Numbered from the stretch's first letter, positions 1 through 16,320 are shown. The stretch: DNA of 64,000 nt from Promethearchaeota archaeon Loki_b31 (GCA_005222975.1 NJBI01000001.1:1-64000), one strand, 5' to 3'. A program made the numbers and translations. Notes: a model not told the origin generated them from the letters alone.

Positions 1-239
1 TAAGTGAGTGATTTTTATGATATTTTTTGTCTATTAAAAAGGAAGTGATATCCAGATATGTATCTTCATTTGAAGAACTTTTAATAAATTATACTTAATA
101 TACCGAATTAAGTGAATTATGTACTAGTTATAAAACTTATGAAATATAATCAGATTTTTCTCAAAATTGAGCGCTTTGTTGAGGGTAAGGAACGCAACTT
201 ACCTTAATCCTTAAAACTTGTAACATTATCTTGCAGAAT

Positions 240-770
240 TTACTTTTCCTTCCAAACCGTTCCGCAACCGCTACACGTATATTTCTTTCCGTAAATTTTA
301 GGATAATCGCAAATAATATCTGTCCGATCGATTGTTTCACGGATTTTGTACCAGTTTTCGTTGTCGCATATTGGACATAATCTGCGCCCCTCTGGTTTTG
401 GAATAACTAGCATTTCTCCTGTGCGACAGAAAAGCCCTTCACTTTTAATTGAGTTAATTAAGTTTTTTTTCTGGATAAAACTTTTTACAACGGGTTCAAT
501 CACATTTGTCTTTGAATCAGATTCACCAGAATTTTGAGATATTTCAATTATTGGTGCGCTATCTTCGATCATTTTAATATAACTTGAAACAATAGGGTTA
601 ATTTCACTCCTTTTTGGTAATCGTTCGTATTCGTCAAAAAAATTGTCGATAAAACTCTCTACATAAATCTTTTCGATATTCAATCCTTTTTGATTAACTT
701 CTCTAACAATGTCCTCAATAATATATTCTTTTAAGACCGGATCTTCTAAAAGCATGTAGTAAAGCCTCAA
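240..770 (-). CDS. Hypothetical protein with C-terminal C4 zinc-ribbon domain
   Basis: CPIC...CSGC plus a DYPKIYGKKY motif. The C-terminal 56 aa match the stand-alone ORF 49198..49386 at 32/56 positions. TTG start at 770 or ATG at 755. Confidence 0.75.
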   Translation of the reverse strand: MRLYYMLLEDPVLKEYIIEDIVREVNQKGLNIEKIYVESFIDNFFDEYERLPKRSEINPIVSSYIKMIEDSAPIIEISQNSGESDSKTNVIEPVVKSFIQKKNLINSIKSEGLFCRTGEMLVIPKPEGRRLCPICDNENWYKIRETIDRTDIICDYPKIYGKKYTCSGCGTVWKEK

Positions 771-850
771 CCTTATGAGTTTTTAAGATGTTTTATGTTT
801 TAATTAGTTTAATACAAATATTTTAAGATGCTATTCTATAAAATACTATC

Positions 851-868
851 TCTAGAATTATTTCTAGA
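851..868. promoter_or_regulatory. Inverted repeat TCTAGAA-N4-TTCTAGA in divergent intergenic region
   Basis: Perfect 7-bp arms between divergently transcribed genes; role as operator is inferred. Confidence 0.3.
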
Positions 869-993
869 TAAAAAAGATCAAAAAGCATACATAATAACTC
901 GATTCGATATTTTGAAACTCATATAAGCATAAGAAGAAAATATATATTAACATCTTTATTTATTTAGACAAGAGAAAGGAGATTTTTAAAAAG

Positions 994-1653
994 ATGGATA
1001 CGAATAATTTGAAGAACTCAAAAGAAAAAGAAAAAAAACCCATATCTCACAAAAAAATAATTATTGCTGTTGTAATGATATGTATTGCGTTCTTCGGCTC
1101 CTTTTTAGCCTATTTTGTTTTACAAGTTGCTCTTAATACTGAAGCTCCTATAGTTATCGTAGTTTCTGGTTCTATGGAGCCCAGTATTCGCGAAGGAGAC
1201 TTATTATTCGTAATGGGTACTAATCCTGAATATATAAAAATTGGTACAGCTGAAGATAAAAATGGAGATGTTATAGTATTTGACGCTCGCGGATTATGGG
1301 CTGGTGCTCCTGAAGAACCTATTGTTCATCGTGTCGTTGATAAGTATTTAGAAGGGGATACATGGTATTTCAGGACAAAAGGGGACGCTAACTCACTACC
1401 TGATCAAATACCTGTCCCAGAGTCTCGAATAATAGGGGTAGTAATAGGGGGGATACCATATATTGGATGGGTAAAGATTGTTTTAACAGAGTATGGGTTA
1501 TTAATTCCTTTACTAGTCATAATATCAGCGTTCCTCGTAATAAGCATAATTCGGGATATTTTTCAAGGTGACGATGAAGATCGAAAGAAAAATAATGATA
1601 AAAACCAAGAAGATTTTGAGAAGCAACCCCCTAAAACAAATAAAATTAATTAA
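994..1653 (+). CDS. sec11: Signal peptidase I, archaeal/ER type (S26B)
   Basis: N-terminal TM, VVSGSMEP (catalytic Ser), GDLLFV, IVHRV (catalytic His), TKGDAN, IPYIGW. Confidence 0.95.
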   Translation: MDTNNLKNSKEKEKKPISHKKIIIAVVMICIAFFGSFLAYFVLQVALNTEAPIVIVVSGSMEPSIREGDLLFVMGTNPEYIKIGTAEDKNGDVIVFDARGLWAGAPEEPIVHRVVDKYLEGDTWYFRTKGDANSLPDQIPVPESRIIGVVIGGIPYIGWVKIVLTEYGLLIPLLVIISAFLVISIIRDIFQGDDEDRKKNNDKNQEDFEKQPPKTNKIN

Positions 1654-1763
1654 ATTAAATCAAATCAAATATTATTTTTAATTTATGTATGTTAAACTTT
1701 TATATATCAATAATTAATAAATATTAATTACACAATTTGTTTTAATAAATTAGGTGATAATAA

Positions 1764-1988
1764 ATGGCTTGGACACCACCAACAAAATGGACTGTAATTT
1801 TCTCATTTCTCGTATTAGCAGGAGGATTGTTTGTATTAAGTGAATTATTATTAGAATATACCAATGTACTGCCTACTTTGGCTCTTGGAACATTCAGCTC
1901 CGCAGAAGTATGGGGTATGATTGGGATGGGACTAGTTTTTCTCGCATGGTTTCTAATGTTTCTTGGAGTGAGATTGAAAGGTTTATAA
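1764..1988 (+). CDS. Small 2-TM membrane protein
   Basis: 74 aa, ATG start, two hydrophobic helices, downstream T-tract. Confidence 0.75.
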   Translation: MAWTPPTKWTVIFSFLVLAGGLFVLSELLLEYTNVLPTLALGTFSSAEVWGMIGMGLVFLAWFLMFLGVRLKGL

Positions 1989-2243
1989 TTCTTCATGTTT
2001 TTTTTTATTTCTTTAAAAAAATTTTCCAAAAATTTCTTCAAAAATGTTTTAGAGAAGTAGATTGCTAAAACACCTTTAATTGCTTTGAGTATAGAATATT
2101 AAATCACATTATTAGTAAGATAATAAAATTTTTATGAAGAAAAATATTTTAAAAAATATAGTTTAAAAATCGTAATAAAAAAATTACGAGATAACAACGA
2201 TACAGTATACAAAAAATACAAAACAAAAAAGTGAAAAAATAAA

Positions 2244-2567
2244 ATGCCTGAAGAAAATACGGAAGTAAAGGAAGTAAAAAAACGAATGCCTCGAAAAGAG
2301 GAAAATAGTGTTTTTGTAGGGAGACGCCCAACTATGAATTATGTTATGGCCACTATGATGATCCTCAATAAAGGAGAAGATTGCACAGTTAAGGCCAGAG
2401 GTAGAGCTATTTCCCATGCGGTTGATGTATGTGAGATTTTAAGAAATAGATTCTTAAAAGGAACTGAATACAAAGGAATTACCCTCAGTACCGAGCAGCT
2501 CGAAGGAGAAAGTGGACAAACTAATAATGTTTCCAGCATTGAAATCGTGCTTGCTCCTCCGCAATAA
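2244..2567 (+). CDS. albA: DNA/RNA-binding protein Alba
   Basis: VFVGRRPTMNYV, VKARGRAISHAVDV, NVSSIEIVL motifs. Confidence 0.97.
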   Translation: MPEENTEVKEVKKRMPRKEENSVFVGRRPTMNYVMATMMILNKGEDCTVKARGRAISHAVDVCEILRNRFLKGTEYKGITLSTEQLEGESGQTNNVSSIEIVLAPPQ

Positions 2568-2618
2568 GTAAGGGAACTCAGTTTTACTAGAATACAATCA
2601 AAACAAATCTTTTTTTTC

Positions 2619-2681
2619 TTAATTTACCCCTCTTAGTTCAATCGTAATGTTTTGAATTGTTAATAGGATTTCATTTTTTTT
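2619..2681. repeat. 63-bp direct repeat, left copy (partner 12002..12064)
   Basis: ttaatttacccctcttagttcaatcgtaatgttttgaattgttaataggatttcatttttttt matches 12002..12064 at 61/63 positions. Confidence 0.92.
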
Positions 2682-2698
2682 ACTACTGTATAACCCTC

Positions 2699-2842
2699 TC
2701 AAATTAAAATCATTGAAAATTTGTCCCAGTTTCCTATTTCATGACTTTTAAAATGAACATCATAAGAACCCGTTGCTGTTTGAGTGAATGTCATAAGCCC
2801 CGTGGTCAATAAAATGTAACCAATACTTCCAAACGCTTCCAT
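2699..2842 (-). pseudogene. Short 47-aa ORF / possible gene remnant at left island edge
   Basis: ATG 2842 to TGA 2699 (MEAFGSIGYILLTTGLMTFTQ...). A shifted frame continues through the repeat as ...NEILLTIQNITIELRGVN*. Confidence 0.25.
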
Positions 2843-2862
2843 TAAAGCTTCTCTAGTTAATT

Positions 2863-3603
2863 CTACCCTTTGTATTTTTTTTTTCTTAATGAGAGACTTC
2901 TTTTCATTCTTTTTTTAAAATTTGGAAGAAAGCAAATTCCTATGCCGATTAAAAATATTAGTGTTATACCAGGCCCCAGACCTGCATCTGTTACCCTAGC
3001 ACCAGGATCTAACAAAAGGAAGAGAAAAATTCCAAAAAAAAGCAATACAACTGGTAGATATATTAATAATACTATTATAAATGCGATATTGACAATTTTA
3101 TTTTGAAATTCTTCAGCATCTTGTTCATAAGAGGCTAAAGACTCTGATTTTTGCAGAATTTTTTCAACATTCTGTTCAGGGGGAAATACAATTTCCTCAG
3201 TAGAGGTTGGCACTTCCGTTTTAAAAACAACATTTAATTTTGGCACTTCAGAATTAAGAGTAATTTTGTGCTTACCACTTGTGATGTTAAATTTATTCGG
3301 AACGATAATGACTAAGTTTTCCGCTGTCCGTAAATTAATATTGAGAATTTTTTCTAAATCTTGATTTTGAATTAATGAACCATCTAGTTTAACATGGAAA
3401 TCCTCCGAATATAAGTTTGTATCAAAGATTAAATCTCTATTTATTTTAATTTTACATCCGTAAATAAAGTCTCTTAACTTATATAAAAATAGCATTTTTC
3501 CAAATCGTTTACTACTCGAATTGAAATGAAATGATAGTTCAATAAATGCACCCTTAATTGTTATTGAGAAAAGATTTTTTATTAAACTACTAGGAATCCT
3601 CAA
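2863..3603 (-). CDS. Hypothetical protein, N-terminal beta-rich domain plus two C-terminal TM helices
   Basis: 246-aa ORF, TTG start, hydrophobic hairpin followed by a basic tail. Confidence 0.7.
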   Translation of the reverse strand: MRIPSSLIKNLFSITIKGAFIELSFHFNSSSKRFGKMLFLYKLRDFIYGCKIKINRDLIFDTNLYSEDFHVKLDGSLIQNQDLEKILNINLRTAENLVIIVPNKFNITSGKHKITLNSEVPKLNVVFKTEVPTSTEEIVFPPEQNVEKILQKSESLASYEQDAEEFQNKIVNIAFIIVLLIYLPVVLLFFGIFLFLLLDPGARVTDAGLGPGITLIFLIGIGICFLPNFKKRMKRSLSLRKKKYKG

Positions 3604-3774
3604 AAAAACACCTCTAGCTTTTATTATTAATTTATTTAAGTTAAATATTAATTATATAATTGAGTATAAAATTTATAAAATATATTAGACTGAATTTTTA
3701 CAATAGTATTTGAGTCTAAAATCGATATTGTGTTTGGTAAAAGGAATAAGACTATATCAATATTTTTTTAGGAT

Positions 3775-5061
3775 TTATTTACTCTCTTCTTCTGATGTCG
3801 TATCCGGCTTATCTTTCAATTCGTCATAAAGATTAAAAAAAGTCGGTAGCACCCCATATGGAGAATTCATTAATTCTTCTTTAATCATTTGGAACTTACT
3901 TTCATCCCCAATTATGTCCCTTAATTCTTTTTCTAAAGCGAAAGGAAGCTCCTTATATTTAGTCATAAGTAAAAAAGGCTCTTTCCTACTTTTAATAAGT
4001 TTACTGGGGAAATTAGAGAAGTACTTTTCAATTAAACTATAAGCAGTTGCATATTCTTTTTTATCTCTAATTGATTTTTTGAGATTTCTCTGAAATGTAA
4101 CCTCAAAATCCTTTGTAAACCCAGTTAAAGCATTCCTAAGTAATCTCGATGATTTAGAGGCAACCAAACCAACCGTGATATATTCAGATTCATTTAAAAT
4201 TAATATTCCTTCAGTTAAATCAATATTCACTAATCCACCAATTTTCATAACTTCTTCACTCATAATTTGTACAGCATTAATAAATCCTGTAAAAATTGGC
4301 TCATCTATGCCTGATTCAGACCAGTCGTGATCAAATAAAGGATATCCCTCATTATCTTTTACAACAATTCTATAAACAGTAAATGGTAAAATGTAAAGAA
4401 GTTTTGGTTCCATAAATATAGCTATACACATAATAAACACTCCTAAACTTAATGTAATGTCTGAATATAGAATAAAACTAGGATCCCAATAATAAAATAT
4501 GAAAACACCTGCTGTTATTGGTGTTGCTATTATGATACCAATAAAAAATATAAGAGCTTCCTTTCTAATCAAAAAGGGGGCGTTTAACCAAGTTTTTAAA
4601 CCCCAATAAAAAACAGGTATAAGAAGAAGGAATACTAAAAAATCCTCTAAAACTTCAAACATGCCTACTGGATTAACAGTTAAATATCCCCATTCAAATT
4701 CAAATCCAACAGCATCTGGTTGAAACGCTAAATAACAAAGTAAAACCCCCGCTCCAAATGTTAATATTAAAATAATTGAATTAATAGTTTCTTTAATCAT
4801 AAAATTAATCCCAATTATAAAGAACATTGAAGTAGGGAATAACATAATAGGATATAATCGAGCAAGAGTCGTGCTTAGGAAAAGGTTTGCTAGTAGATCG
4901 AAAACAAAATATAACACCATAAAAATCAAAGCCATTCTAATAAAAAATAGCGATCTTATTTTCTTTGTTCTGGGTTCGAAGTATGTTAGTAAGACAGCTA
5001 CAAAGATTGTTATGCTGGTAAAAATTTCGACTATTACTTCAGGTGTCCAATTTAAAACCAT
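3775..5061 (-). CDS. 7TM (HisKA_7TM-like) membrane sensor fused to cytoplasmic longin-like domain
   Basis: About seven hydrophobic helices in aa 1-225, then a longin-like pattern VYRIVVKDNEGYPLFDHDW...IFTGFINAVQIMSEEV...ITVGLVASK. Confidence 0.75.
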   Translation of the reverse strand: MVLNWTPEVIVEIFTSITIFVAVLLTYFEPRTKKIRSLFFIRMALIFMVLYFVFDLLANLFLSTTLARLYPIMLFPTSMFFIIGINFMIKETINSIILILTFGAGVLLCYLAFQPDAVGFEFEWGYLTVNPVGMFEVLEDFLVFLLLIPVFYWGLKTWLNAPFLIRKEALIFFIGIIIATPITAGVFIFYYWDPSFILYSDITLSLGVFIMCIAIFMEPKLLYILPFTVYRIVVKDNEGYPLFDHDWSESGIDEPIFTGFINAVQIMSEEVMKIGGLVNIDLTEGILILNESEYITVGLVASKSSRLLRNALTGFTKDFEVTFQRNLKKSIRDKKEYATAYSLIEKYFSNFPSKLIKSRKEPFLLMTKYKELPFALEKELRDIIGDESKFQMIKEELMNSPYGVLPTFFNLYDELKDKPDTTSEEESK

Positions 5062-5099
5062 TATTCTATACCTTTTTTATTAATATTTATTTATCTAAT

Positions 5100-5828
5100 T
5101 TAACTATTTTTGAAATATTCTAATTCACGAATATTAGAAATCTCGCTTAAAACCTCTATTACAATATCTCTCTTTTTCGGATTGAGTTTTACCTTATTAT
5201 CAGCTAATAACTCTAAAATCTGGAATTCTATTAAATTTTGAATCCGATAGTAGATAGTGCCTCTGTTTTCTCCTAACGATTTATAAATTTGAGAGCGTTC
5301 TTGAGAATCAGTTGATATTAAGTGGTTAAGAATTTTCCTATATAATTCGTCTTGTATAAGGAAATAAATTTTACCGCTTTCATCATCTATTTCAATTGGA
5401 AGAAAAATTGTGTAATTTTTTAAAGTTAGCTTTTTAATATAATTGAATTTAATGAGCATATCTAAATGCCATATCAATTCGCCTGGGCTACCTGTTATAT
5501 CACTAGAAATTCCAACTCTTTTAATAAGAGAAAAGTGGGAACCGATATTGCTTTGGATAAAATTATAGATTATTTTCCGCGTAGAATTAGACAAAACGGT
5601 TCTTCTTGTAAATCTTGACCGGTTCACTAAGATTTTATCATTGATTAAAAATTGAATGATAGCATTTAAACCCTTTCGGGGTATCTTTAAACGTTTTTTA
5701 GCACGATAATATAAGGAATCAATATTTAAAATCTTATTTTCATCTAATATTTCCTCAGCAATTTCTATCACTTGCTTTACACTTGGATGCTCTAATCCGA
5801 TAGAAATTAGGTTGACATATTGGTTCAT
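5100..5828 (-). CDS. Multi-winged-helix transcriptional regulator
   Basis: NSTRKIIYNFIQSNIGSHFSLIKR...GELIWHLDML and SQIYKSLGENRGTIYYRIQNL HTH patterns; 38 bp from the 7TM-longin gene on the same strand. Confidence 0.85.
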   Translation of the reverse strand: MNQYVNLISIGLEHPSVKQVIEIAEEILDENKILNIDSLYYRAKKRLKIPRKGLNAIIQFLINDKILVNRSRFTRRTVLSNSTRKIIYNFIQSNIGSHFSLIKRVGISSDITGSPGELIWHLDMLIKFNYIKKLTLKNYTIFLPIEIDDESGKIYFLIQDELYRKILNHLISTDSQERSQIYKSLGENRGTIYYRIQNLIEFQILELLADNKVKLNPKKRDIVIEVLSEISNIRELEYFKNS

Positions 5829-6058
5829 TTCTTTCTAAAACTATACAGTATAATTTAATAGATGTTTTTTCACGAATAGTTGATTGTCCCAAATTATAAT
5901 TCCAATGTATAAAAGGAGATATTATTATATTTAAACTTTAACAATTCTATAAAAATCCGAGGTATTTACATTTAATAACCCTAGATTTCATTTCTTTAAA
6001 TGCTCCATGCCCAATTTTATCTGGTTCTAACCACATCACATATTAGAATCGCTTATAC

Positions 6059-6162
6059 GATTGCAAAAATTCGGTCTAAATCATTTTTTAAGATAGTAAA
6101 CAGTTTTGTTTTACAAATCAAATATTTTTATGATTTGTTAAAAATTTGAATTAAAAGTGAAA
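6059..6162 (+). promoter_or_regulatory. Conserved ~100-bp promoter/operator module, copy A
   Basis: gattgcaaaaattcggtctaaatc...agttttgttttacaaatc...aaaattt...agtgaaa; homologous to 6807..6909 and 8602..8706. Confidence 0.75.
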
Positions 6163-6248
6163 TAAAAAATCAAAATTAAACTCTTGGGTACAGTTCTTTA
6201 AATTTCACTTTTCTATTAAAGAATCTAAAAAAATGTTGGTGAATAATA

Positions 6249-6635
6249 GTGGGACGAATAAAAGGGATTTTAGCCATATCGATTGGGATTTATATTTTAA
6301 TTACGTTCCTCGGTATAATATTTCAAGTTTTAAGTATTCGACCAGATATAGCAATTGCTTTCATAGTTAATTTTATAGTTTTTTGGATTTTTACATTTCT
6401 GATCCCTGGAATACTTTCAATAGCAAGATATAAAATGAGCGATAAGTCGAAGTGGTGGTATATGATTGCCCCGGTAGCTTCACTTTTAATGTTAGTCTAT
6501 ATGGTATTGATAATAAGTTTTTACGGAGATAATTTTTGGAATTATTTCGCTCAATATTTTATTTATGCCATAGGAGCATCAATACTCCTAAGTCTTATAA
6601 TCATTTGCTATGCCCATCAGGAGGGTGGTTTCTGA
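6249..6635 (+). CDS. Hypothetical 4-TM membrane protein
   Basis: 128 aa, GTG start, four hydrophobic segments. Confidence 0.7.
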   Translation: MGRIKGILAISIGIYILITFLGIIFQVLSIRPDIAIAFIVNFIVFWIFTFLIPGILSIARYKMSDKSKWWYMIAPVASLLMLVYMVLIISFYGDNFWNYFAQYFIYAIGASILLSLIIICYAHQEGGF

Positions 6636-6806
6636 ATTATTACCAAAAAAAACTCCGAACTGCTTAAAAAATTAATTTTATCTGAATCAGATTAATATAC
6701 AAATTTTTTTTTTTAATTTTCTTATTTTAAAATTAATCCAAATTGAATAATTACTCACTGCTTAGTGCAGGTTAAATGATATCATTTAACCCTAATTCAT
6801 TTATAA

Positions 6807-6909
6807 GATTGTAAAAAATCAGTCTAAATCTTTTTTTAAGTCAGTAAATAGTTTTGTTTTACAAATCTTATCTTTTTGTGATTTAATAAAAATTTTAATT
6901 TAGTGAAAA
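6807..6909 (+). promoter_or_regulatory. Conserved ~100-bp promoter/operator module, copy B
   Basis: gattgtaaaaaatcagtctaaatc...agttttgttttacaaatc...agtgaaa directly before ATG 6910; imperfect inverted repeat 6803..6816 / 6857..6871. Confidence 0.75.
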
Positions 6910-8499
6910 ATGATGAGAAAAAAAAAATTAAAAGTTTTAGTATTGATATTATTTTTGCTTTTACCAATAGAAATTATTACAAGTTCTTATACTAATAAGT
7001 TTCCTTTTTTATTAGTACAATCAGACGAAGAAATAGCAAAAACTGAAATAAAAATGTCACTGAATTCTTTTGGAATTGATTGGTTACCGGACGGGACGCC
7101 TATAAGTACGGCAAACAATAGCCAAAGGAATCCTCAAATTTGTAGCGATGGAGCTGGGGGTGCGATCATCACGTGGCAGGACTATAGAAGCGGATCGAAT
7201 TACGATATTTACGCGCAGAGAATTGATTCCTCCGGAAACTTACAGTGGACCGCTGATGGTGTAGTTATATGTACAGCAAGTGATAGCCAATATAGACCTG
7301 AAATATGTAGCGACGGAGCTGGGGGTGCGATCATCACATGGTACGACTATAGAAGCGGATTATACTCAGACATTTACGCGCAGAGAGTTAATCACTTAGG
7401 TAATATACAATGGACTATAAATGGCACAGCTATCTGCACAGCAGGCGAATCCCAATTAGAGTCTCAATTATGCAGTAATGGGGCAGGTGGTGCAATCATT
7501 ACTTGGATTGACTATAGAAGTGGATCTAATTACGATATTTATGTTCAAGAAGTTAGTTCTTCCGGAGGTATCGAGTGGAATATCAATGGTACAGCTATAT
7601 GCACAGTAAATAATGACCAAATTAATCCTCAGATATTTAGCGATGGATCGGGAGGTGCGATCATTACCTGGAAGGGTGCGGGTATTTACGCACAGAGAAT
7701 TGATTCCTCCGGAAATTTAAAGTGGACTGTAAATGGCACAGCTATCTGCACAGCAAATGGTGACAAAAGAATTCCTCAATTATGCAGTAATGGGGCAGGT
7801 GGTGCAATCATTACTTGGTTTGACTATAGAAGTGGATCTAATTACGATATTTATGTTCAAGAAGTTAGTTCTTCCGGAGGTATCGAGTGGAATATCAATG
7901 GTACAGCCATATGTACAGCAAATGGTGACCAATATGCTCCTCAATTATGTAGCGATGGATCGGGAGGTGCAATAATTACATGGTACGATGGTAGAAGTGG
8001 ATCCACTGGTCGTAATATTTACTCTCAGTCTATAAATTCCTCTGGAAATATACAGTGGACTAACAATGGCGTAGCTATATGTACTGCCAATAATGACCAA
8101 TGGGTCCCTCAATTGTGTAGCGATGGATCGGGGGGTGCGATAATTTCATGGTACGATAATAGAAATATCGATATAACAGGTCGAGATATTTATGTTCAGC
8201 TTATTAATTCCGCAGGAAATGTCTTGTGGATATCCAACGGTTTAGCTATATGCACAGTAAATAATGACCAAATTAATCCTCAGATATGCAGCGATGGAGC
8301 AGGAGGTGCGATAATTACATGGAACGATGGTAGAAGTGAAAACGACGATATTTATGCGCAACATATAAAATCGCCAGAATTAGAAGGTGGGGAGATTCCC
8401 TTTGTGATCATTGTTGCTATCGTTTCCTTCATTGGAATTGCAGTACTTATTGGCATAGCAACAACTTTAATAATTAAGAAACGCCGTAAAATTGAATAA
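6910..8499 (+). CDS. Cell-surface protein with ~59-aa beta-propeller-type repeats and C-terminal TM anchor
   Basis: Signal-peptide-like N-terminus; 7-8 repeats W..NGxAICTA..xQ..PQ(I/L)CSDGxGGAIITWxDxR...DIYxQ; anchor ends TLIIKKRRKIE. Confidence 0.88.
   Translation: MMRKKKLKVLVLILFLLLPIEIITSSYTNKFPFLLVQSDEEIAKTEIKMSLNSFGIDWLPDGTPISTANNSQRNPQICSDGAGGAIITWQDYRSGSNYDIYAQRIDSSGNLQWTADGVVICTASDSQYRPEICSDGAGGAIITWYDYRSGLYSDIYAQRVNHLGNIQWTINGTAICTAGESQLESQLCSNGAGGAIITWIDYRSGSNYDIYVQEVSSSGGIEWNINGTAICTVNNDQINPQIFSDGSGGAIITWKGAGIYAQRIDSSGNLKWTVNGTAICTANGDKRIPQLCSNGAGGAIITWFDYRSGSNYDIYVQEVSSSGGIEWNINGTAICTANGDQYAPQLCSDGSGGAIITWYDGRSGSTGRNIYSQSINSSGNIQWTNNGVAICTANNDQWVPQLCSDGSGGAIISWYDNRNIDITGRDIYVQLINSAGNVLWISNGLAICTVNNDQINPQICSDGAGGAIITWNDGRSENDDIYAQHIKSPELEGGEIPFVIIVAIVSFIGIAVLIGIATTLIIKKRRKIE
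7463..7907 (+). repeat. Near-identical intragenic duplication (7463..7595 vs 7775..7907)
   Basis: 133 bp with one mismatch (Ile/Phe codon). Another 44-bp exact match occurs at about 7593..7636 vs 8244..8287. Confidence 0.85.
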
Positions 8500-8601
8500 A
8501 AACTAAATTCATCTTTTCTTTTTTCTTAATTTCTAATTATCGAAGCATCAAAAGTTAACAAACCTATTCATTAAATCGATATAAAAATGATAATTTAATG
8601 T

Positions 8602-8706
8602 GATTGTAAAAATTCAGTCTAAATTATTTTATAAGTCAACAAGCAGTTATATTCTGCAAATCTTAATTTTTAATTTAATAAAAATTTTAAAAAAAAGTGA
8701 AATTCA
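8602..8706 (+). promoter_or_regulatory. Conserved ~100-bp promoter/operator module, copy C
   Basis: gattgtaaaaattcagtctaaatt...agttatattctgcaaatc...atttaataaaaattttaa...agtgaaa directly before ATG 8707. Confidence 0.72.
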
Positions 8707-11700
8707 ATGAAAATTAAAACAAAAAAAGGAATATTATACTTAGGAGTTGCTTTTCTACTATGCCTTAACAGCATTTTTCCTTATATTCTCATTGAAAATA
8801 TCGTACTCGAAACGGATATTCAAGAAAAAAATCTACCAAGGCTTAGCAGTCAATATATTAATATAATTACTCCAGAAAATAAAACTTACATAGGAGGGAT
8901 GCAAGGTTATTATCCTGCAACATATGGCTTTGAGAATGAGACACTAGGGTCAGATCCAATTGAATGGTTAAGTATTCGTAGTGGAGGTACCGTTCGTATA
9001 GTTGAAGAAGTAGGAACCCATAAGAATGTTGCAAAAATACGGGATATAGATAATTCTGGCTATGTTTCTTTTCTCAATCAATTTGATTCCAATAAAGTAT
9101 CAGGAACAGTCGAATTCTGGGTAAGTACAAATGATACATCTAAAGCATTTTATATGAGGATCTTAGCATCCATTTCAGAAAGAGCCGTGATGATGAGAAT
9201 CGAAAATAATTATATTTATTGTCAAGATTCTACTACTTGGAGGGTCGTAAAATCAATTTCAAATAATAAATGGTACCATTTCAGTATTGAATTTGATTGC
9301 TCAACTGATACTTACAATTGTTGGATTGATGGGAATCTAGAAGCAGCAGATTATGGATTTAGAGACAGTGATATTAGTTCAGTTAGTAAGATACAGTTAT
9401 ATACCACCAATATTGAGGTAGATTATGAGATATATGTTGATGCTGTAGGATATTCTTGGGATATTAATTACAATATTGGAGATAATTTTTATGAAGGACT
9501 ATTGCTTAGTTTCACTAATAATACCAAGCTCGATTGGGTAGGTTATTCATTAGATGGTCAATCAACTAAAACTATTTATGGAAATACATCAATTCCAACA
9601 CCTAATGATGGATTACATAGTATTCAATTGTTTGGAAATGACTCATTGGGAACGGGATATCATTCAGATAAAAGATGGTTCAAAGTTGAAGCATTTTCAA
9701 ATAATTATATAGAAGACTTTACTACTACGACGTATATGGATGATCTTGCTACTAATTCTTCAGGATGGGGGTCTGGAGCCCTGAATTTACCGAACAAAAA
9801 TTTAACTGTTAATGTTTTTGAAGCGCCAAGTAATTGGAGATCAAGCAAAGTTCAGATGTCTGGAGATATAGTATACTCTGCTAATTATTATAGATTTGAA
9901 ATCCATGATATTAGTAATCCGAGCGAACCAATTCTACTTTCAGCGTATTCAGATGGTTGTTATGACTTCGTTATATCTGGAAACTATGCATACATAGCAG
10001 CTTATCGTCATGGATTAATAATATTGGATATTTCAGATAAAAGCAATCCTAGTCTTTTAGGCTCGTGTGATAACTATCAGACTCATTCGAGTATTACTGA
10101 TTTATATGCAACGACTATTGAGATTAAGGGGGCATATGCTTACATTTGGGATATGATACATGAATTAATAGTAATCAATATTGCTGATCCTAGTAACCCC
10201 TTTAAAGCCGGAGATTGGCTTGAGAGTGGTGGATTTTATGGGGAAAAAATGATAATTAAAGACAATTACCTTTATTTATTAACTGGAAATGTAATAATTT
10301 TTGATATAAGCAGCCCTACGAGCCCATCAGATGTGTATACTTATAATACAGGGACCTATTATGACACAGGAGTTATTTCTGGCAATTACTTATATTTACC
10401 TGGACAATATACTTTAGACATCTTAAATATTATTACCCCTACAGCTCCTGCTTTTGTAAGTTCCACAAGTACTGGAGTATCTGGCCCACAGAGTATCGCT
10501 TTCGATAATACTTTTGTCTATATAGGAGGTAATAGAATTGCATCACCCAATAATTACGGATTAGTTGAAATATACGATGTTTCTAATGTCGTAAATCCTC
10601 AATTTGAATATAGGTATATATCTCCGTGTGCAGATCCTTCTCATAGTTCAATGATCGATACAATTGACGTAATAAATGGATTTTCGTTTATGTATGATTA
10701 TAGAGGATATTATATCATCGCAGATTTCAATTTAATCGATCAATATGAAGCAATAGCTATTGGTCAATCGTCATCAATATATTCGGGAACATCCAATGTA
10801 TTATTGACACAACTATTACTTACAGTTTCTGAAGAATTACCCTCGGATACAGGAATTACTTATTACATTTCCGCAGATAACGGAACCCACTGGGAGCAAA
10901 TTATTCCAAATTCCGTTCATGCATTTGAATATCTAGGAAATCAACTAAAATGGAAAGCTGTATTAACAACTTCTCACTTATATAGAACGCCACAATTAAA
11001 TTCCTTAAGCATTGCATATTTACCATTATTAAATGGAACTATTTTATTATCACCATTGAATCATACCCATACAAATGATAACACTCCCTATTTTGAGTGG
11101 GAAGATATACCAGAAGCTACAGATTATATTATTCAATTGGATACCTCTACAACTTTTAATTCTGTTGATTATCGATATCAAAAGGTTAATAACAATTACT
11201 GGACAGCAAGTCCCTTTTTACAGGATAATACTTGGTATTGGAGAGTTGCTGGAATAGATTCAAAGAACGATGTAGGATTTTTCTCAGCTTATAATATACT
11301 TTATATTGATACACCTCCCGGGCAGTCAACTCTCATATCGCCAGAAAATAATAGATACATCGCTACAAGTAACCCTACATTCACATGGAGCGAAGCATAT
11401 AACGCTTTAAACTATACATTACAGCTAGATTCGTCCAATACATTTTCTTCAGGGGATCTTATAATATATAGCCAAATTCTATTAACAAGCTATTCACCAA
11501 CTTCACCTATCACTGACGGTATATGGTATTGGAGGATCCAAGCTTTCGATAATACAGGAAATAGCGGTCCTTATTCAGACGTTAATTTAATTATAATCGA
11601 TGCAACAATACCATCAATAGACCAACCAAATGATAAATCATATAAGGAAGGATCTACAGGTAATAGGATTGTCTGGAATTCTAATGATATTAATCCGGAT

Positions 11701-11979
11701 CGTTGTGAAGTAACCAGAGACGAAACAATTGTTAGGGATAACTCATGGGATGGAAATATTATCATTATTGATATAGATGAGTTATCTATTGGAACTTATA
11801 TCTATACCTGTACAGTTTACGATAAGGCAGGGAATTCAAATAGTGATATTGTGACTGTAACAGTTGAAGAAGCTGAAAATTTATTTGGACCGTTCATAAT
11901 TGCTTCCTTTATTGGTATAGTAATGGTTATTGGTATTGCAATGACTTTAATAATTAAAAAACGCCGTAAAATTGAATAA
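8707..11979 (+). CDS. Large multidomain cell-surface protein (LamG/ConA-like, LVIVD repeats, FN3/Ig-like domains, C-terminal TM anchor)
   Basis: Signal peptide; NNKWYHFSIEFD (LamG-like); ISGNYAYIA...GLIILDISDKSNP (LVIVD); two P(Y/T)FxW...YxxQLDxSxTF...WYWR units; anchor ends TLIIKKRRKIE. Confidence 0.88.
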   Translation: MKIKTKKGILYLGVAFLLCLNSIFPYILIENIVLETDIQEKNLPRLSSQYINIITPENKTYIGGMQGYYPATYGFENETLGSDPIEWLSIRSGGTVRIVEEVGTHKNVAKIRDIDNSGYVSFLNQFDSNKVSGTVEFWVSTNDTSKAFYMRILASISERAVMMRIENNYIYCQDSTTWRVVKSISNNKWYHFSIEFDCSTDTYNCWIDGNLEAADYGFRDSDISSVSKIQLYTTNIEVDYEIYVDAVGYSWDINYNIGDNFYEGLLLSFTNNTKLDWVGYSLDGQSTKTIYGNTSIPTPNDGLHSIQLFGNDSLGTGYHSDKRWFKVEAFSNNYIEDFTTTTYMDDLATNSSGWGSGALNLPNKNLTVNVFEAPSNWRSSKVQMSGDIVYSANYYRFEIHDISNPSEPILLSAYSDGCYDFVISGNYAYIAAYRHGLIILDISDKSNPSLLGSCDNYQTHSSITDLYATTIEIKGAYAYIWDMIHELIVINIADPSNPFKAGDWLESGGFYGEKMIIKDNYLYLLTGNVIIFDISSPTSPSDVYTYNTGTYYDTGVISGNYLYLPGQYTLDILNIITPTAPAFVSSTSTGVSGPQSIAFDNTFVYIGGNRIASPNNYGLVEIYDVSNVVNPQFEYRYISPCADPSHSSMIDTIDVINGFSFMYDYRGYYIIADFNLIDQYEAIAIGQSSSIYSGTSNVLLTQLLLTVSEELPSDTGITYYISADNGTHWEQIIPNSVHAFEYLGNQLKWKAVLTTSHLYRTPQLNSLSIAYLPLLNGTILLSPLNHTHTNDNTPYFEWEDIPEATDYIIQLDTSTTFNSVDYRYQKVNNNYWTASPFLQDNTWYWRVAGIDSKNDVGFFSAYNILYIDTPPGQSTLISPENNRYIATSNPTFTWSEAYNALNYTLQLDSSNTFSSGDLIIYSQILLTSYSPTSPITDGIWYWRIQAFDNTGNSGPYSDVNLIIIDATIPSIDQPNDKSYKEGSTGNRIVWNSNDINPDRCEVTRDETIVRDNSWDGNIIIIDIDELSIGTYIYTCTVYDKAGNSNSDIVTVTVEEAENLFGPFIIASFIGIVMVIGIAMTLIIKKRRKIE

Positions 11980-11989
11980 AAACAAAATT

Positions 11990-12003
11990 ATTTTTTTTTT
12001 TTT
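11990..12003 (+). terminator. Archaeal oligo-T terminator
   Basis: Run of 13 T just after the stop codon of 8707..11979. Confidence 0.6.
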
Positions 12004-12064
12004 AATTCACCCCTCTTAGTTCAATCGCAATGTTTTGAATTGTTAATAGGATTTCATTTTTTTT
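12002..12064. repeat. 63-bp direct repeat, right copy (partner 2619..2681)
   Basis: ttaattcacccctcttagttcaatcgcaatgttttgaattgttaataggatttcatttttttt; two C/T differences from the left copy. Confidence 0.92.
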
Positions 12065-12235
12065 TAAGTTCCATACTGGTTCAAATAATGTAGTATTTAG
12101 AGAATTATTTGGAAAATTATTAAGAGATGACAAAACATTTAAAAACTCAAATGGTACAATTAATATTAATAAAAAATCAATTATAATCTGATTTTTTAAT
12201 ACTTTATAAGAATTATAAGAAGAGGAAGAAAAAAA

Positions 12236-12424
12236 ATGGCTAAGGTAGAACCCCTATATGTAAAATCAAAAGTTCGAGAGTATATAAAAGCAAACGAATG
12301 TAACACAAGCTCAGGCGTGCTTGATGGAGATACCTTTAATGGCATAATAATAAAGATACTTGACAATGCCATTCGGCGTGCTAAAGCAAATGGAAGAAAA
12401 ACCGTTAAAGCACGAGATTTATAA
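12236..12424 (+). CDS. Histone-fold protein, alpha3-truncated (face-to-face/Bd0055-like) type
   Basis: 62 aa, SKVREYIK...NTS...AIRRAKANGRKTVKARDL; ends right after the RxTxxxxD motif with no full alpha3 helix. Confidence 0.88.
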   Translation: MAKVEPLYVKSKVREYIKANECNTSSGVLDGDTFNGIIIKILDNAIRRAKANGRKTVKARDL

Positions 12425-12717
12425 ACAAAATTATAATAAATTTCCACTTTTCTTTTTTTTATTATTCATTGATGTCTATGTTAATACATTTAAAAAATTA
12501 GGATTTTAACGAATATTAGATTATTTTCCATTATAATCGGAATTAGAGATTAATAAAGAATTTGGGAAGTCTCTCCCTCGAATCTTGCAGTGCTTATGAT
12601 TTCCAAAATAAAAAAATAGGTGCAACGAGAATTTTAAGTTCTACTTCCTTTGATACTAAGTATATTTAAAACCATAAGATGTGTTGAGATGGAACTAATT
12701 GTAAAAGAAGAAAATAT

Positions 12718-15700
12718 TTAAAATATTTTAGATTTGCCTAATTCATCCCATCCAATTATTATGCGATTTGGAAATTGTTCTGCGACATCATCTAAATGAG
12801 TTATTAGGATAATTTTTTTAAATAATGATTTGAGTTCAAAAATCTTTTCTACGAATCTCTGTCTTGAAGTTTCTGTATCTAAGGTACCAATATCTCCCTC
12901 ATCAATAAATAAAGTATCCGATTTTCGAAAAACCGCCCCAGTAGTATCTGGAATTTCCGCTATTCGCTCCATTATAGCAAATCTTATGGCAGCATTAATT
13001 TGAGTTTTTTCACCTCCCGAAAAGCTGGATGCCTCCCTTTCTCGTTCTCCATCAAATACATATATTTCAAACCCTATATTTTTTCCACTTAAAGATTTGA
13101 AAATAATTTGATTATATTTTCCCTCTGTAAGATCACTTAGAATTTCTGAAGCTTTGATTGAGATAGCTGGAAGTATTTTTTCTATAGCAAACTTAGCAAC
13201 TCCATTAAGATGAAATACATCCTTTCGTAAAATTGTATATTTTTCAATATTATTTTTAACTTGTTCTATTTCTTTCTGAATTTGTTTGATCTTTATTTTG
13301 AATTCTTTTATTCGATTAATTTCTTTTTTAATAAATCCGATTTCCCCTTTCAAACCTTGTAATAATTCATTTATCTCATTTAAGTCCTGTTGTTTTTTTT
13401 CAAACTTTCGTGCAACTTCTAAATATTCTTCATAAGAAGGTTTTAGTCTTTTTAGCTCTTCCTCTAATTTTTCTAATTTCTCTTTCAGGTTAAAAATATC
13501 TTTTTCGCTTTTTCTAATTAAGGGAGCATAATCCTTTATTTCTTTTAATCTTCTTTCTAACTCTTCTCTCTCTTCTTCTTGTCTTTTGAGCTCCTCTAAC
13601 TTTTTAGTAATAATTGATAATTGCTCCTCAAAATTTTCGATTAATCTTTGTTTAACGAGACTTGCATTTAATTTTTTAACTTTTTTTTCTACTTCTCCTA
13701 ATTCCTCTGTCTTTTTCTTCTCAATTTTTTTTAATTTTTCTTGTAATATTCGGTAATCTATCTTGATTTCATCTGCAATGAAAACATCTTTTGTTATTTT
13801 CTTTTGTTTAGGTCTAATTACCTGCAATTCTATTTGAGTTTTTTCTTCTGTAGCGATAAATTCTTTTATGCGTTTATCGTCCTTATATTCTTTAGCCATA
13901 GGTAGTTCAATTTTTTGCAGCCTGTAAAGTCTTTCTGTTAACATACCATCCTCTTTTAAAGTATTAAACGCTTCGTCTTTACTTATATCAACATCTAAGT
14001 CGGAAAGTCGGGATTCCCTTTTTTGAATTTGATCAATCAACATCTCTAATTGCTCATCATATTGCTTTTCTATACGATCTAGCATTTTTTGAGTACTCTC
14101 TATTTCAGATTGTATTAACTCTTTCTCATGTATTTTTTTATTAACGATCTCTTTTCGTTTTTCTAAATCTTCTTTCTCGTTTCTAATATCGTGAAATTTT
14201 TCTAACTTTTTTTGGAGATTTTCGAATTTATTTTGCTGGATTTTAGACATTTTAAGTTCTTCCTCATTCTTACCAACATCAATCTCTAACTCATCGATAG
14301 ATTTCTTAGTATTAGAGTAGTTAAAAGCTTCAATTTGCAATCTTTCCGTTTCTTCTTTTAATTTTTGCACTTCTTTTGAAATAATTGTTTTTTCTTTTTC
14401 TTGTTGCAGAACTTCTTCATTTTTTAGTTTTAAATTTTTTATATACTGAGGCAATTCTTCAATTAATACTCCTAATTCGTCAGTCTTTCCTTCAAAAAAC
14501 TTTTGATTCTCTACGAGATCCATTATTACAGTTTTTAAATTTTTCTCAACCTCTTGAAAAATCTTCAACTTAAACAATTTTATAAGCCTCTTATGTCTTT
14601 TAGAAGAGTCAAGAGATGAAAATATCTGTAATTCTTGCTGTCTTATAAAAAAGGAAGATGTGAATCCTTCGTAATCGTAACCTATAATCCCCTCTAATTT
14701 TTCCTCTTTTTCTGGAATTTTCAGACCAGTATATAATGGCTCATTCTCAAATTTTAGCTCTAGTTTAGGCGAAGTTTGCCTTCTTTTTACAACTAATAGT
14801 TGATCTCCAATTAAAAGTTCAAGATTTACGTATCCTTTATCGTATAATATTTCATCAAGAGTAAGTCCTACATCTCTACGAGAATTTCTTTTAAAAAGAG
14901 CAAATGTAATAGCATCTAATATTGAAGACTTTCCTGAACCTGTAGGACCTTTTATAACATATAAACCATCTTCAAAAACAATTTTATTTGGTCCTTTTCC
15001 GTAGTTAATAAAATTTTGCATATCAATAGATCTTATTGATAAAGAACCTTTAGTAGTTAAATCAACTAAGGAAATCTCCTTTGCAAGTAATTCTAAACCA
15101 ATACTTTTCAGTTCTCCGTAATATTTATGAGTTGAATATTTCTGCTCGAGAAAATCTTTAAATAAGCTTCTTGGATCTAAATTAACCTTCCGAAGCTTTT
15201 GAAGCTCAAGACCAATTTTTTCTTTATAGTTCAAATTAGTATAAAAAGAATCTTTAAAATACTGTTGTAGCTGATTTTTATTAATTTTTACTTCCATTCC
15301 TTTAGAACAATAAATTGCGATTTCACATATGGATTCTTTAACGCTTTCTTTTTCTGGTAGAGCTTCTAAAATAAATCGATTTAGATCTTCTGTATCATTT
15401 GGAATTTCTATATTTAGTTTTATAAGATTTCTACATTCTATTTCTCTAAATTCTAAATCGTCGTTCTCAATATCATAAACGCAGTAAAACTTTTTTGAAT
15501 CTCTTTCCCCCATATCAAGCCTATCAATTGACCCTGGAATTATAATTCGATCGTCGTTCCACATTTTTTGTTTTAAATGTACATGTCCAAAAATAACGAG
15601 ATCAAATTTATCTTTTTGAATCATTTGTTTATTAAATCGAAATTCCCCGTAAATCGTTCTAGGATTATTCGTTTCTCGAATTTTGGCCCCATCCAAATAA

Positions 15701-16320
15701 TAATGTCCAATTAGAATTCTTTTTTGACAATCTTTTAGTTTAGTCTTGCATATCTGTGCAATATAATTTTGAAAAATGTGTTGAGCAATTATGTAATTAT
15801 TCTGATTTTCAAGAATTTCTTTTTCTATAAAGCCCTCATTTTTAGCCATCTTTACTAAAACATCAAAATGGATATAGGGTAGAAAAATAATGCCAGCCTT
15901 CTTCTCATTAATTTCAATTATTAGATGTTTTAGACCTGTGTACACGTTAACATTAGAAAAGTTTGCTAATTCTTGAACATCCGCCCCTCTCTTAGGATTC
16001 CTTATAGAATCGTGATTACCGCCAATAATAATTGTTTTTATCTGGTGTTCATTTAAAGGTATGAAGATTTTTTCACGCACGATTTTTCTGATAGTAGGAG
16101 AAATCATCTGCCTTTCGTATAAATCTCCTAGAAAGATCACATAATCTGCTTTTTCTTCTATAGCTGCATTAACAATTTTTTCGCAATTGTTAATTACATC
16201 AAAATTTCTTTCTGAAATACTTAACTCATAATTTTTGCGATAAGAATACGGTTTTCCAAAATGAGTATCCCCTATGAAAAATATCTTTGTAATGATCCCT
16301 TCACCTGTTTTTATCTTCAA
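12718..16320 (-). CDS. mre11-rad50: Fused Mre11 nuclease - Rad50 ABC ATPase
   Basis: N-terminal GDTHFG, GDLYE, GGNHD, GHVH phosphoesterase motifs. From aa ~428: IRSIDMQNF, GPTGSGKS, coiled coil, FSGGE, FIDEG, ITH. One continuous frame, TTG start. Confidence 0.95.
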   Translation of the reverse strand: MKIKTGEGIITKIFFIGDTHFGKPYSYRKNYELSISERNFDVINNCEKIVNAAIEEKADYVIFLGDLYERQMISPTIRKIVREKIFIPLNEHQIKTIIIGGNHDSIRNPKRGADVQELANFSNVNVYTGLKHLIIEINEKKAGIIFLPYIHFDVLVKMAKNEGFIEKEILENQNNYIIAQHIFQNYIAQICKTKLKDCQKRILIGHYYLDGAKIRETNNPRTIYGEFRFNKQMIQKDKFDLVIFGHVHLKQKMWNDDRIIIPGSIDRLDMGERDSKKFYCVYDIENDDLEFREIECRNLIKLNIEIPNDTEDLNRFILEALPEKESVKESICEIAIYCSKGMEVKINKNQLQQYFKDSFYTNLNYKEKIGLELQKLRKVNLDPRSLFKDFLEQKYSTHKYYGELKSIGLELLAKEISLVDLTTKGSLSIRSIDMQNFINYGKGPNKIVFEDGLYVIKGPTGSGKSSILDAITFALFKRNSRRDVGLTLDEILYDKGYVNLELLIGDQLLVVKRRQTSPKLELKFENEPLYTGLKIPEKEEKLEGIIGYDYEGFTSSFFIRQQELQIFSSLDSSKRHKRLIKLFKLKIFQEVEKNLKTVIMDLVENQKFFEGKTDELGVLIEELPQYIKNLKLKNEEVLQQEKEKTIISKEVQKLKEETERLQIEAFNYSNTKKSIDELEIDVGKNEEELKMSKIQQNKFENLQKKLEKFHDIRNEKEDLEKRKEIVNKKIHEKELIQSEIESTQKMLDRIEKQYDEQLEMLIDQIQKRESRLSDLDVDISKDEAFNTLKEDGMLTERLYRLQKIELPMAKEYKDDKRIKEFIATEEKTQIELQVIRPKQKKITKDVFIADEIKIDYRILQEKLKKIEKKKTEELGEVEKKVKKLNASLVKQRLIENFEEQLSIITKKLEELKRQEEEREELERRLKEIKDYAPLIRKSEKDIFNLKEKLEKLEEELKRLKPSYEEYLEVARKFEKKQQDLNEINELLQGLKGEIGFIKKEINRIKEFKIKIKQIQKEIEQVKNNIEKYTILRKDVFHLNGVAKFAIEKILPAISIKASEILSDLTEGKYNQIIFKSLSGKNIGFEIYVFDGEREREASSFSGGEKTQINAAIRFAIMERIAEIPDTTGAVFRKSDTLFIDEGDIGTLDTETSRQRFVEKIFELKSLFKKIILITHLDDVAEQFPNRIIIGWDELGKSKIF

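Follow-up and report, generated by a model that had tools for sequence, protein, structure and literature searches.

Bacterial membrane-bound one-component regulators such as ToxR and CadC have a single transmembrane (TM) helix, with a sensor in the periplasm and an OmpR-type winged helix (wH) at the N-terminus. A membrane protein may also control a separate transcription factor, as in the holding of Mlc by PtsG and in TnrA with GlnK-AmtB; the membrane partners there are transporters, not operon partners of the factor. We have analysed a 64,000-nucleotide (nt) stretch of Promethearchaeota archaeon Loki_b31 (GCA_005222975.1 NJBI01000001.1:1-64000; the window hereafter), in which two minus-strand genes encode a triple winged-helix protein (the wHTH protein, for winged helix-turn-helix) and a predicted receptor with seven TM helices (7TM) and a longin-fold domain. 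It is somewhat better than an even chance (about 0.55) that these two genes form a kinase-free, two-protein transmembrane signalling unit that reads its own promoter element. The folds, the pairing of the two genes, the association of the element with the pairs, the constant spacing between element and TATA-like box, the enrichment of anchored-protein genes beside the pairs and the fused forms were established computationally.

The pair resembles ToxR and CadC in having a membrane sensor and a winged-helix output without phosphotransfer, and their layout is that of a single fusion of 676 amino acids (aa) described below. It differs from them by its 7TM bundle, longin-fold transducer, separate triple-wH protein and archaeal TATA-linked site, and searches of Pfam and of solved structures found no sequence relation. 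The likeness to Mlc-PtsG and TnrA lies in a polytopic membrane protein that binds a soluble regulator. This was also the logic of a preliminary description of the locus, in which the longin domain sequesters or releases the wHTH factor to control surface adhesins; such binding is only proposed here. The window receptor, however, is equipped with a dedicated cytoplasmic domain, and linkage between the two genes is strict. Unlike a two-component system, the pair has neither HisKA plus HATPase_c nor a receiver domain; in agreement with the preliminary description, no such Pfam or NCBIfam match was obtained with either protein. Among histidine kinases with 7TM input (7TMR-DISM, HisKA_7TM), the likeness is to some short-form relatives of the receptor, which belong to the same archaeal family and have the order 7TM-longin-HisKA-HATPase_c, whereas the window receptor has a helical tail and a wHTH partner in place of the kinase. 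An NPRL2-like longin fused to two-component domains has been noted for Asgard archaea (Liu et al., bioRxiv 10.1101/2020.10.19.343400). Neither the pair nor the element was found described in full-text literature searches, and on this computational support the pair looks like an undescribed signalling route.

The two genes are 38 nt apart (5062-5099), which confirms the tight minus-strand pair reported earlier. The same genome has four paralogous pairs (C61, C14, C78 and C6), each with the wHTH gene followed after a short gap by the 7TM gene; compared with the window proteins, identity is 43-58% for the receptors and 47-54% for the wHTH proteins. In almost all of 31 metagenome loci (where flank permits) the wHTH gene is located immediately 5' of the receptor gene, and it is directly upstream in 9 of the 11 long-form loci of related genomes. 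Variants of the arrangement are wHTH-7TM-7TM, 7TM-wHTH-7TM and two divergent pairs. The gene pairing, lack of which had been named as an argument against the earlier proposal, is conserved in the four paralogous pairs and at essentially every related locus with enough flank.

The receptor family comprises 542 clusters at 50% identity. The tailed form (~430 aa) was found solely in the window's own Lokiarchaeial family (f1; 47 of 68 genomes), and a tail-less form (~360 aa) was present in 109 of the 301 sampled genomes of the phylum, with no wHTH neighbour at any of the 12 tail-less loci examined. At the loci examined, the long form nearly always has a wHTH neighbour and the short form has none; therefore, tail and partner appear together. 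A census in Asgard genomes had been proposed earlier: it bears out the pairing but restricts the tailed form with its wHTH partner to one Lokiarchaeial family.

In two clusters of ~628 aa (4 and 9 members), the short 7TM-longin form is fused to HisKA and HATPase_c. These relatives match HisKA and HATPase_c alone, and not HisKA_7TM or 7TMR-DISM. Because of these fusions, the 7TM-longin module is a signalling input, one that is able to feed a classical kinase. The phosphorylation independence suggested in the preliminary description thus holds for the kinase-free pair of the window but is not intrinsic to the sensor. One of the kinase fusions (L119) lies between two Gtr1/RagA-like GTPase genes, with a Ras-family gene close by.

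A different fusion, an uninterrupted 676-aa open reading frame (ORF; G049:C223:2458-4488, locus L117), comprises the receptor with its tail and, in full, the triple-wH protein (hhalign probability 100%, E 1.4e-47), and a separate upstream wHTH gene is absent from this locus. It looks like a read-through of the 7TM-then-wHTH order, and we gave it moderate weight. The fusion argues that the wH factor can act tethered, and membrane control fits better with it than release. In L117, an Arf-like GTPase-domain gene (143-1672) is located 5' of the fusion ORF, which is also preceded, at ~470 nt, by an element site. The receptor tail was further seen as a stop-riddled remnant at the rsmB-nip7 slot of a genome from which the pair has been lost, as a 99-aa stand-alone ORF and in a frameshifted pair member. 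A separate tail protein was considered and rejected, as the three isolated or broken copies (L115:463-720, L114:3869-4168 and L116) lend no evidence for it.

Known longins are soluble or stand N-terminal to SNARE motifs, and have roles in trafficking or GTPase regulation. The AlphaFold2 (AF2) model of the receptor, obtained with an alignment of 35 homologues, had a predicted local distance difference test score (pLDDT) of 77.5. In this model, residues 7-217 form seven TM helices with an extracellular beta-hairpin (118-131) in the second outer loop, and a soluble domain at 229-322 has the order beta-beta-alpha-beta-beta-beta-alpha (DSSP: E229-236, E241-246, H254-267, E278-281, E286-291, E295-301, H306-322); the bounds of the longin-fold domain are 226-353, and the tail (354-428) is helical and poorly defined. 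The N-terminus is probably outside and the C-terminus with the soluble part cytoplasmic, because a basic loop follows TM1 (positive-inside rule). In a structure search independent of Foldseek, residues 226-353 matched the longin domains of VAMP7 (Z 13.4, root-mean-square deviation (rmsd) 2.4, 118 aligned residues) and Sec22 (Z 12.9), the rmsd for the two being 2.3-2.4 over 118 residues, followed by AP sigma subunits, TRAPPC4 and SR-alpha, and Roadblock3 of Prometheoarchaeum (Z 10.4). By superposition the domain has the longin fold, with mixed model confidence in this part (pLDDT 50-90). Eukaryotic longins (VAMP7, Sec22, AP sigma, TRAPPC4, SR-alpha SRX) and Asgard roadblock/longin proteins (PMC10933270) share its fold and strand order over 118-125 residues (Z 11-13.4, rmsd 2.3-3.4). 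It differs from them in its location at the C-terminus of a 7TM bundle and in having no longin match at the sequence level. The receptor matched no Pfam or NCBIfam family at E <= 0.1, and hence no curated longin or roadblock profile; a profile search of PDB sequences returned nothing relevant, and a search of the ESM Atlas returned only Promethearchaeota clusters without names. The earlier 7TM-longin label is accordingly correct for the fold but has no counterpart in sequence profiles.

The earlier assignment of the TM domain to the HisKA_7TM type was not upheld: there was no Pfam match to HisKA_7TM or 7TMR-DISM, nor to 7tm_1/2/3, and the fold resembles bundles of the G protein-coupled receptor (GPCR) type. 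The structure search gave Z 14.2 for Ste2, 12.4 for mGlu1 and ~11-12 for adhesion GPCRs. The features that the modelled receptor would have in common with GPCRs (Ste2, class C, adhesion) are the seven-helix bundle, the predicted N-out/C-in orientation and the beta-hairpin in the second outer loop, with the Z values of 14.2 and 12.4 reached over ~200-213 residues; the receptor differs in having no sequence match to them and apparently no heterotrimeric G protein. The alkaline ceramidase ACER3 scored at the same level (Z 13.6), the search tool cautions that helical bundles commonly reach such values by arrangement alone, and Foldseek E-values were only ~7e-3. We consider the likeness seen in the model as resemblance only. 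Asgard '7TM proteins' and a 'class C GPCR' cluster, which may include the window family, appear among Asgard-eukaryote families (2026 preprint, PMC13734099).

The winged-helix label of the partner was supported by its AF2 model (pLDDT 88.4), which consists of three winged helices (wH1, 10-75; wH2, 76-148; wH3, 149-216) and a C-terminal helix (217-241). Together with this helix, wH3 is like the ArsR/SmtB/MarR regulators (Z 12.0-12.4), closest to CadC, SmtB and YodB (Z 12.3-12.4), and wH2 matched the DNA-binding wH of Zur and Nur (Z 10.6-10.8). Foldseek with the whole chain gave SelB WH2-4, UFL1/DDRGK1 and Vps22 of ESCRT-II (endosomal sorting complex required for transport II) as best matches (E 2e-4 to 4e-3). 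The match to PF24266 (HTH_HVO_0163_N) was weak (23 bits for a cut-off of 31, E 8.6e-5), and this family is present in the precomputed annotation of many homologues; a sequence search of solved structures gave weak matches to wH3 only. Sequence-specific DNA binding by the protein is suggested only by the way in which the 21-nt element accompanies wHTH-bearing loci. Comparison of recognition-helix residues with element variants across the paralogues revealed no clean co-variation. The wHTH genes of the C14 type (L034:9732-10787, L039, L041, L074 and L076) seem to be N-terminally extended by ~100 aa (ORFs of 316-351 aa).

In the receptor, mean pairwise identity was highest in the longin domain (70%), lower in the TM helices (~50%) and lowest in the outer hairpin (41%); in the wHTH protein it was 64% (wH1), 55% (wH2), 45% (wH3) and 25% (C-terminal helix), with wH1 and wH2 strongly conserved including their third helices. 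This profile, with a variable outer loop, TM part, wH3 and C-terminal helix and a conserved longin domain, wH1 and wH2, fits a receptor-regulator account.

The pair diverges from three plus-strand units, and the preliminary description had noted the same module before each of them. We found copies of ~110 nt at all three places (modules A, B and C) and a fourth, partial copy of the core followed by a TATA-like box (element D), which had been overlooked, on the minus strand 73 nt past the receptor stop codon and 79 nt before the gene of a membrane protein, ORF246. Module A lies 85 nt before the GTG of its gene. When module B was searched against the 3.5-Mb assembly, the other two copies were recovered at E 1e-26 (84% identity) and 2e-17 (80%), and nothing else in the genome scored below E 0.008. 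The repeat thus goes well beyond what chance would give and is confined to this locus. On comparison of module copies across strains, the shared part was a 21-nt core followed by a T/A-rich box. With at most 2 mismatches, a 20-nt core occurs at four places in 3.5 Mb, all inside the island described below (the three modules and, inverted, 3683-3702). The top match with 3 mismatches lies ~100 nt upstream of the wHTH gene of the C78 paralogue, and orthologues of the C78 pair in other genomes retain the element despite different neighbouring genes. A rigid degenerate pattern missed copies A and B, and weight matrices were used instead.

A matrix trained solely on C61-type, C78-type and L085 sites was applied to held-out loci of other lineages. 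A site of at least 14 bits was observed within 600 nt of the pair in 19 of these 25 loci, compared with 0.013 per locus predicted from the background. The consensus of 31 compiled sites is TTGTA-N-AA-W-W-T-Y-R-GTC-Y-W-W-AT, and in 24 of them a TATA-like box begins 3 nt past the element. In a genome scan with a 34-nt matrix, 14 places reached a score of at least 16 bits; of the 11 best matches, 8 are at most 500 nt from one of the four pairs, and each pair has at least one. Across 78 kb of short-form and kinase-fusion loci lacking a wHTH gene, no match attained 16 bits. The regulatory role proposed earlier for the module was thus strengthened, as the cis-element tracks wHTH-bearing pairs across lineages, but the module (element plus TATA-like box) is, judging from its sequence, probably a promoter and not merely an operator. 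The strongest site away from the pairs (G000:C82:22969-23002, minus strand; L122; 29.4 bits) lies 73 nt before a candidate distal target, the gene of a 230-aa protein (N-terminal TM segment, C-terminal zinc ribbon).

The element has two usual positions, 5' of the wHTH gene and just past the receptor gene, pointing toward the next gene. At C61-type and C78-type loci, the upstream element points away from the wHTH gene. In C14-type lineages it points into the N-terminally extended wHTH ORF, 43-142 nt off, an arrangement that suggests autoregulation. Behind the C14-type receptor gene, only the element and the TATA-like box are conserved at diverged loci. A short transcript at this place was considered and rejected: its fold was no better than that of shuffled sequences (z -1.0), and ~110 nt were kept only in close relatives. 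Rfam gave no match in window 1-13000 or around the C14 pair. We also rejected the inverted arrangement GATTGTAAAA ... TTTTACAAATC of modules A-C as a dimer site, the second arm being missing at ORF246, L085, L092/L093 and in other lineages. An EAP30/Vps36-family (ESCRT-II-like) gene (L034:6564-7280, G000:C14) lies 1.1 kb downstream of the C14 pair, past a nip7/PUA gene.

The archaeal activators Ptr2 and TFB-RF1 bind just upstream of the transcription factor B (TFB) recognition element (BRE) and the TATA box. The element described here is like their sites in being specific and at a fixed short distance from a TATA box; it differs in that it lies ~3 nt from the TATA-like box and in its candidate regulator, a triple-wH protein coupled to a membrane receptor. 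Because the element reaches within ~3 nt of the TATA-like box, occlusion of TFB, that is, repression, is equally possible.

The four genes behind the elements of the window encode envelope proteins. ORF246 gave no meaningful Pfam match, and its orthologue is located 3' of the 7TM gene in L066, L067, L069, L079 and L091, the strain loci with sufficient flank. An orthologue of the 128-aa protein of the first cassette stands directly behind the module in strain L096. The 529-aa surface protein has 7-8 tandem beta-propeller-type repeats of ~55 aa and a weak TIGR04275/PDIAV match; the 1090-aa protein matched Pfam LVIVD (E 3.7e-24) and Big_13. The genes of these two proteins have a common anchor and 3' flank (8419-8523 and 11899-12003, 82% over 105 nt). 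To assess whether such neighbours are typical, ORFs of 200 aa or more in the window's genome served as the base rate: ORFs with an N-terminal signal or TM segment and a C-terminal anchor made up 12 of 75 (16%) within 3.5 kb of pairs and 31 of 2080 (1.5%) genome-wide, an about ten-fold enrichment to which at least six lineages contributed anchored neighbours. In the window, L072, L076 and L098, anchored-type genes follow the element at a distance of 79-85 nt. The surface-protein targets assumed in the preliminary description are therefore borne out as an enrichment but not as a rule, since two of the four pairs in the genome, and many other pairs, have no neighbour of this type within 3.5 kb.

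The passengers behind the element differ. In L066 (1268-4015) the passenger is a propeller-repeat protein of 915 aa, similar in its C-terminal half to the N-terminal region of the 1090-aa protein; L067 has a NosD beta-helix protein, L085 a CARDB protein and L076 LVIVD-type proteins. This looks like the replacement of cassettes or passengers between a constant module and anchor. Passengers at L066:1268-4015 and L067:6818-8896 stand between the same promoter module and anchor, and at L093:163-315 just the core of the module and a remnant of the anchor are left.

The pair, ORF246 and the cassettes constitute a single 9.3-kb insertion between alba and an 83-aa ORF (window 2607-12064), bounded by direct repeats that are 95% identical. 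In five sister genomes (L103, L104, L106, L107 and L108) the site is empty, alba adjoining the 83-aa ORF with one repeat copy, and in a sixth (L105) the island is present. No integrase gene is visible in the island. Next to it, window 12718-16320 (minus strand) encodes a 1200-aa ORF with Metallophos (Mre11-like) and SMC/Rad50-like ATPase domains. The features are listed in Table 1.

Table 1. Positions of the genes, modules and related features (window coordinates unless a locus is named)
Feature	Position	Strand	Remarks
Receptor, 428 aa	3775-5061	-	AF2 model, fold searches, family census
Triple winged-helix protein, 242 aa, first operon gene	5100-5828	-	AF2, fold matches, homologues
Module A	6052-6163	+	Core 6061-6081, TATA-like box 6085-6091; divergent from wHTH gene, 234 nt from its start
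Module B	6800-6911	+	Core 6809-6829; reaches ATG of 6910-8499
Module C	8595-8703	+	Core 8604-8624; reaches ATG of 8707-11979
Element D	3670-3703	-	Core 3683-3703 and TATA-like box; toward ORF246; 27.4 bits in 34-nt scan
C14 element-plus-TATA site, 33 bits	L034:7939-8382 (G000:C14:34938-35381)		Faces convergent nip7
ORF246, membrane protein with C-terminal TM segments and basic tail	2863-3603	-	TTG start after GAGGTG Shine-Dalgarno-like sequence
Small polytopic membrane protein, 128 aa, first cassette	6249-6635	+	GTG start
Surface protein, 529 aa	6910-8499	+	Signal peptide; C-terminal TM anchor ending KKRRKIE
Surface protein, 1090 aa	8707-11979	+	Signal peptide, LVIVD repeats, Ig-like domains (Pfam)
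Direct repeat, left, 75 nt	2607-2681		40 nt after alba gene (2244-2567, +, Pfam)
Direct repeat, right, 75 nt	11990-12064		95% identical to left copy
7TM-longin-HisKA-HATPase_c fusions	L118:2124-4001 (G101:C63); L119:2274-4157 (G292:C36)		GTDB genomes

From these data we infer the following route, including the contact between receptor and wH protein, the DNA binding of the latter, the direction of its regulatory effect and the kind of signal that is sensed. The variable 7TM bundle would sense a signal from outside or from the membrane, and the conserved cytoplasmic longin-fold domain with its helical tail would relay it by contact with the triple-wH protein. The latter would bind the 21-nt element ~3 nt upstream of the TATA-like box, over the usual BRE position, and such binding would set the activity of the element-bearing promoters. 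In the window these would drive the genes of the 128-aa protein, the 529-aa propeller-repeat protein, the 1090-aa LVIVD protein and ORF246, and in C14-type lineages one such promoter would also drive the wHTH gene. The insertion of pair, ORF246 and cassettes as one unit, that is, their co-inheritance, counts in favour of this reading. Several points weigh against it. Receptor-wH contact and DNA binding are predictions of this reading, and tandem winged-helix arrays double as protein scaffolds (ESCRT-II, UFL1 and Rpc34, for example). Part of the association between element and pairs is explained by the shared ancestry of the loci, no site was found at four low-identity long-form loci (L045, L047, L095 and L100), and the C14 site past the receptor gene faces a convergent gene with no ORF following. 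The receptor-wH fusion is one sequence, in which loss of a stop codon or misassembly of adjacent genes may have occurred. Finally, as the element spans the BRE position, a specialised TFB or another factor could read it.

Taken further, this last point becomes an alternative that we consider rather unlikely, namely that a TFB or TATA-binding protein paralogue, or an unlinked regulator, reads the element, with the wHTH-7TM operon being one member of its regulon and the modules being leftovers of cassette duplication and passenger swapping. The abutting TATA-like box would suit such a reader. The ~110 nt common to modules A-C are far more than a binding site needs, and together with the shared 3' anchor and flank of the large genes and the different passengers of the same module in strains, they would suit duplication. 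Against this alternative, the element stands by itself, with no other part of the module, at ORF246, at the pairs of C78, C14 and C6 and in many further lineages, and it was not found in the 78 kb around wHTH-less relatives. Moreover, the element variants differ among pair lineages, even within the window's genome, which a general factor would not be expected to need.

Longin and roadblock proteins act with small GTPases in eukaryotes and in MglAB, and the receptor might likewise signal through such GTPases, with its longin domain as a platform of the guanine nucleotide exchange factor or GTPase-activating protein type or as a docking site, and the wHTH protein separate or downstream instead of a direct partner. 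The fold matches, Roadblock3 among them, the Rag- and Arf-like genes flanking the kinase fusion of L119 and the wHTH fusion of L117, and the ~65 small-GTPase genes of the genome are in line with this idea. It is nevertheless improbable: none of the four pairs in the genome has a small-GTPase gene within 10 kb, the strictly conserved neighbour is the wHTH gene, and in the kinase fusions the longin domain is placed between the TM bundle and HisKA, the position of a signal-transmitting linker. Less probable still, and in our view quite improbable, is a triple-wH protein that serves as an ESCRT-II-type scaffold without binding DNA and forms with the 7TM-longin protein a complex for sorting, inserting or anchoring surface proteins. 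Such a scaffold would agree with the tandem-wH arrays among the best whole-chain matches, the conservation of wH1 and wH2 up to their third helices, the use of longin domains as trafficking modules and the enrichment of anchored surface proteins beside the pairs; it would leave unexplained why a conserved DNA element occurs only with wHTH-bearing loci, and the best matches of wH3 with the C-terminal helix, which are to DNA-binding regulators (Z ~12), and the many pairs lacking a surface-protein neighbour also speak against it.

Asgard archaea have many longin and roadblock proteins, and we know of none with a demonstrated partner or pathway. The signalling unit proposed here offers a concrete longin case, in which a receptor and its obligate neighbour go with a 21-nt element at a fixed TATA distance and a small, mostly local set of targets, mainly surface and membrane proteins. 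Its sensor module is wired to a histidine kinase in some relatives and stands without tail and partner in others, which amounts to a natural swapping of outputs. The target cassettes are exchanged among strains behind the same promoter and anchor; if the proposed unit is real, surface variation would be under receptor control, and this could bear on cell-cell or syntrophic contacts. More tentatively, and with the odds in our opinion somewhat against it, the pair may represent a third kind of prokaryotic transmembrane signalling, additional to the two-component and the classical one-component kinds, in which a GPCR-fold receptor acts through a longin transducer directly on a dedicated multi-wH factor with its own element. 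If this is true, Asgard archaea would have invented the use of a 'trafficking' fold in receptor signalling, and the pair could be relevant to the origin of the control that longin platforms exert over membrane-linked signalling in eukaryotes.

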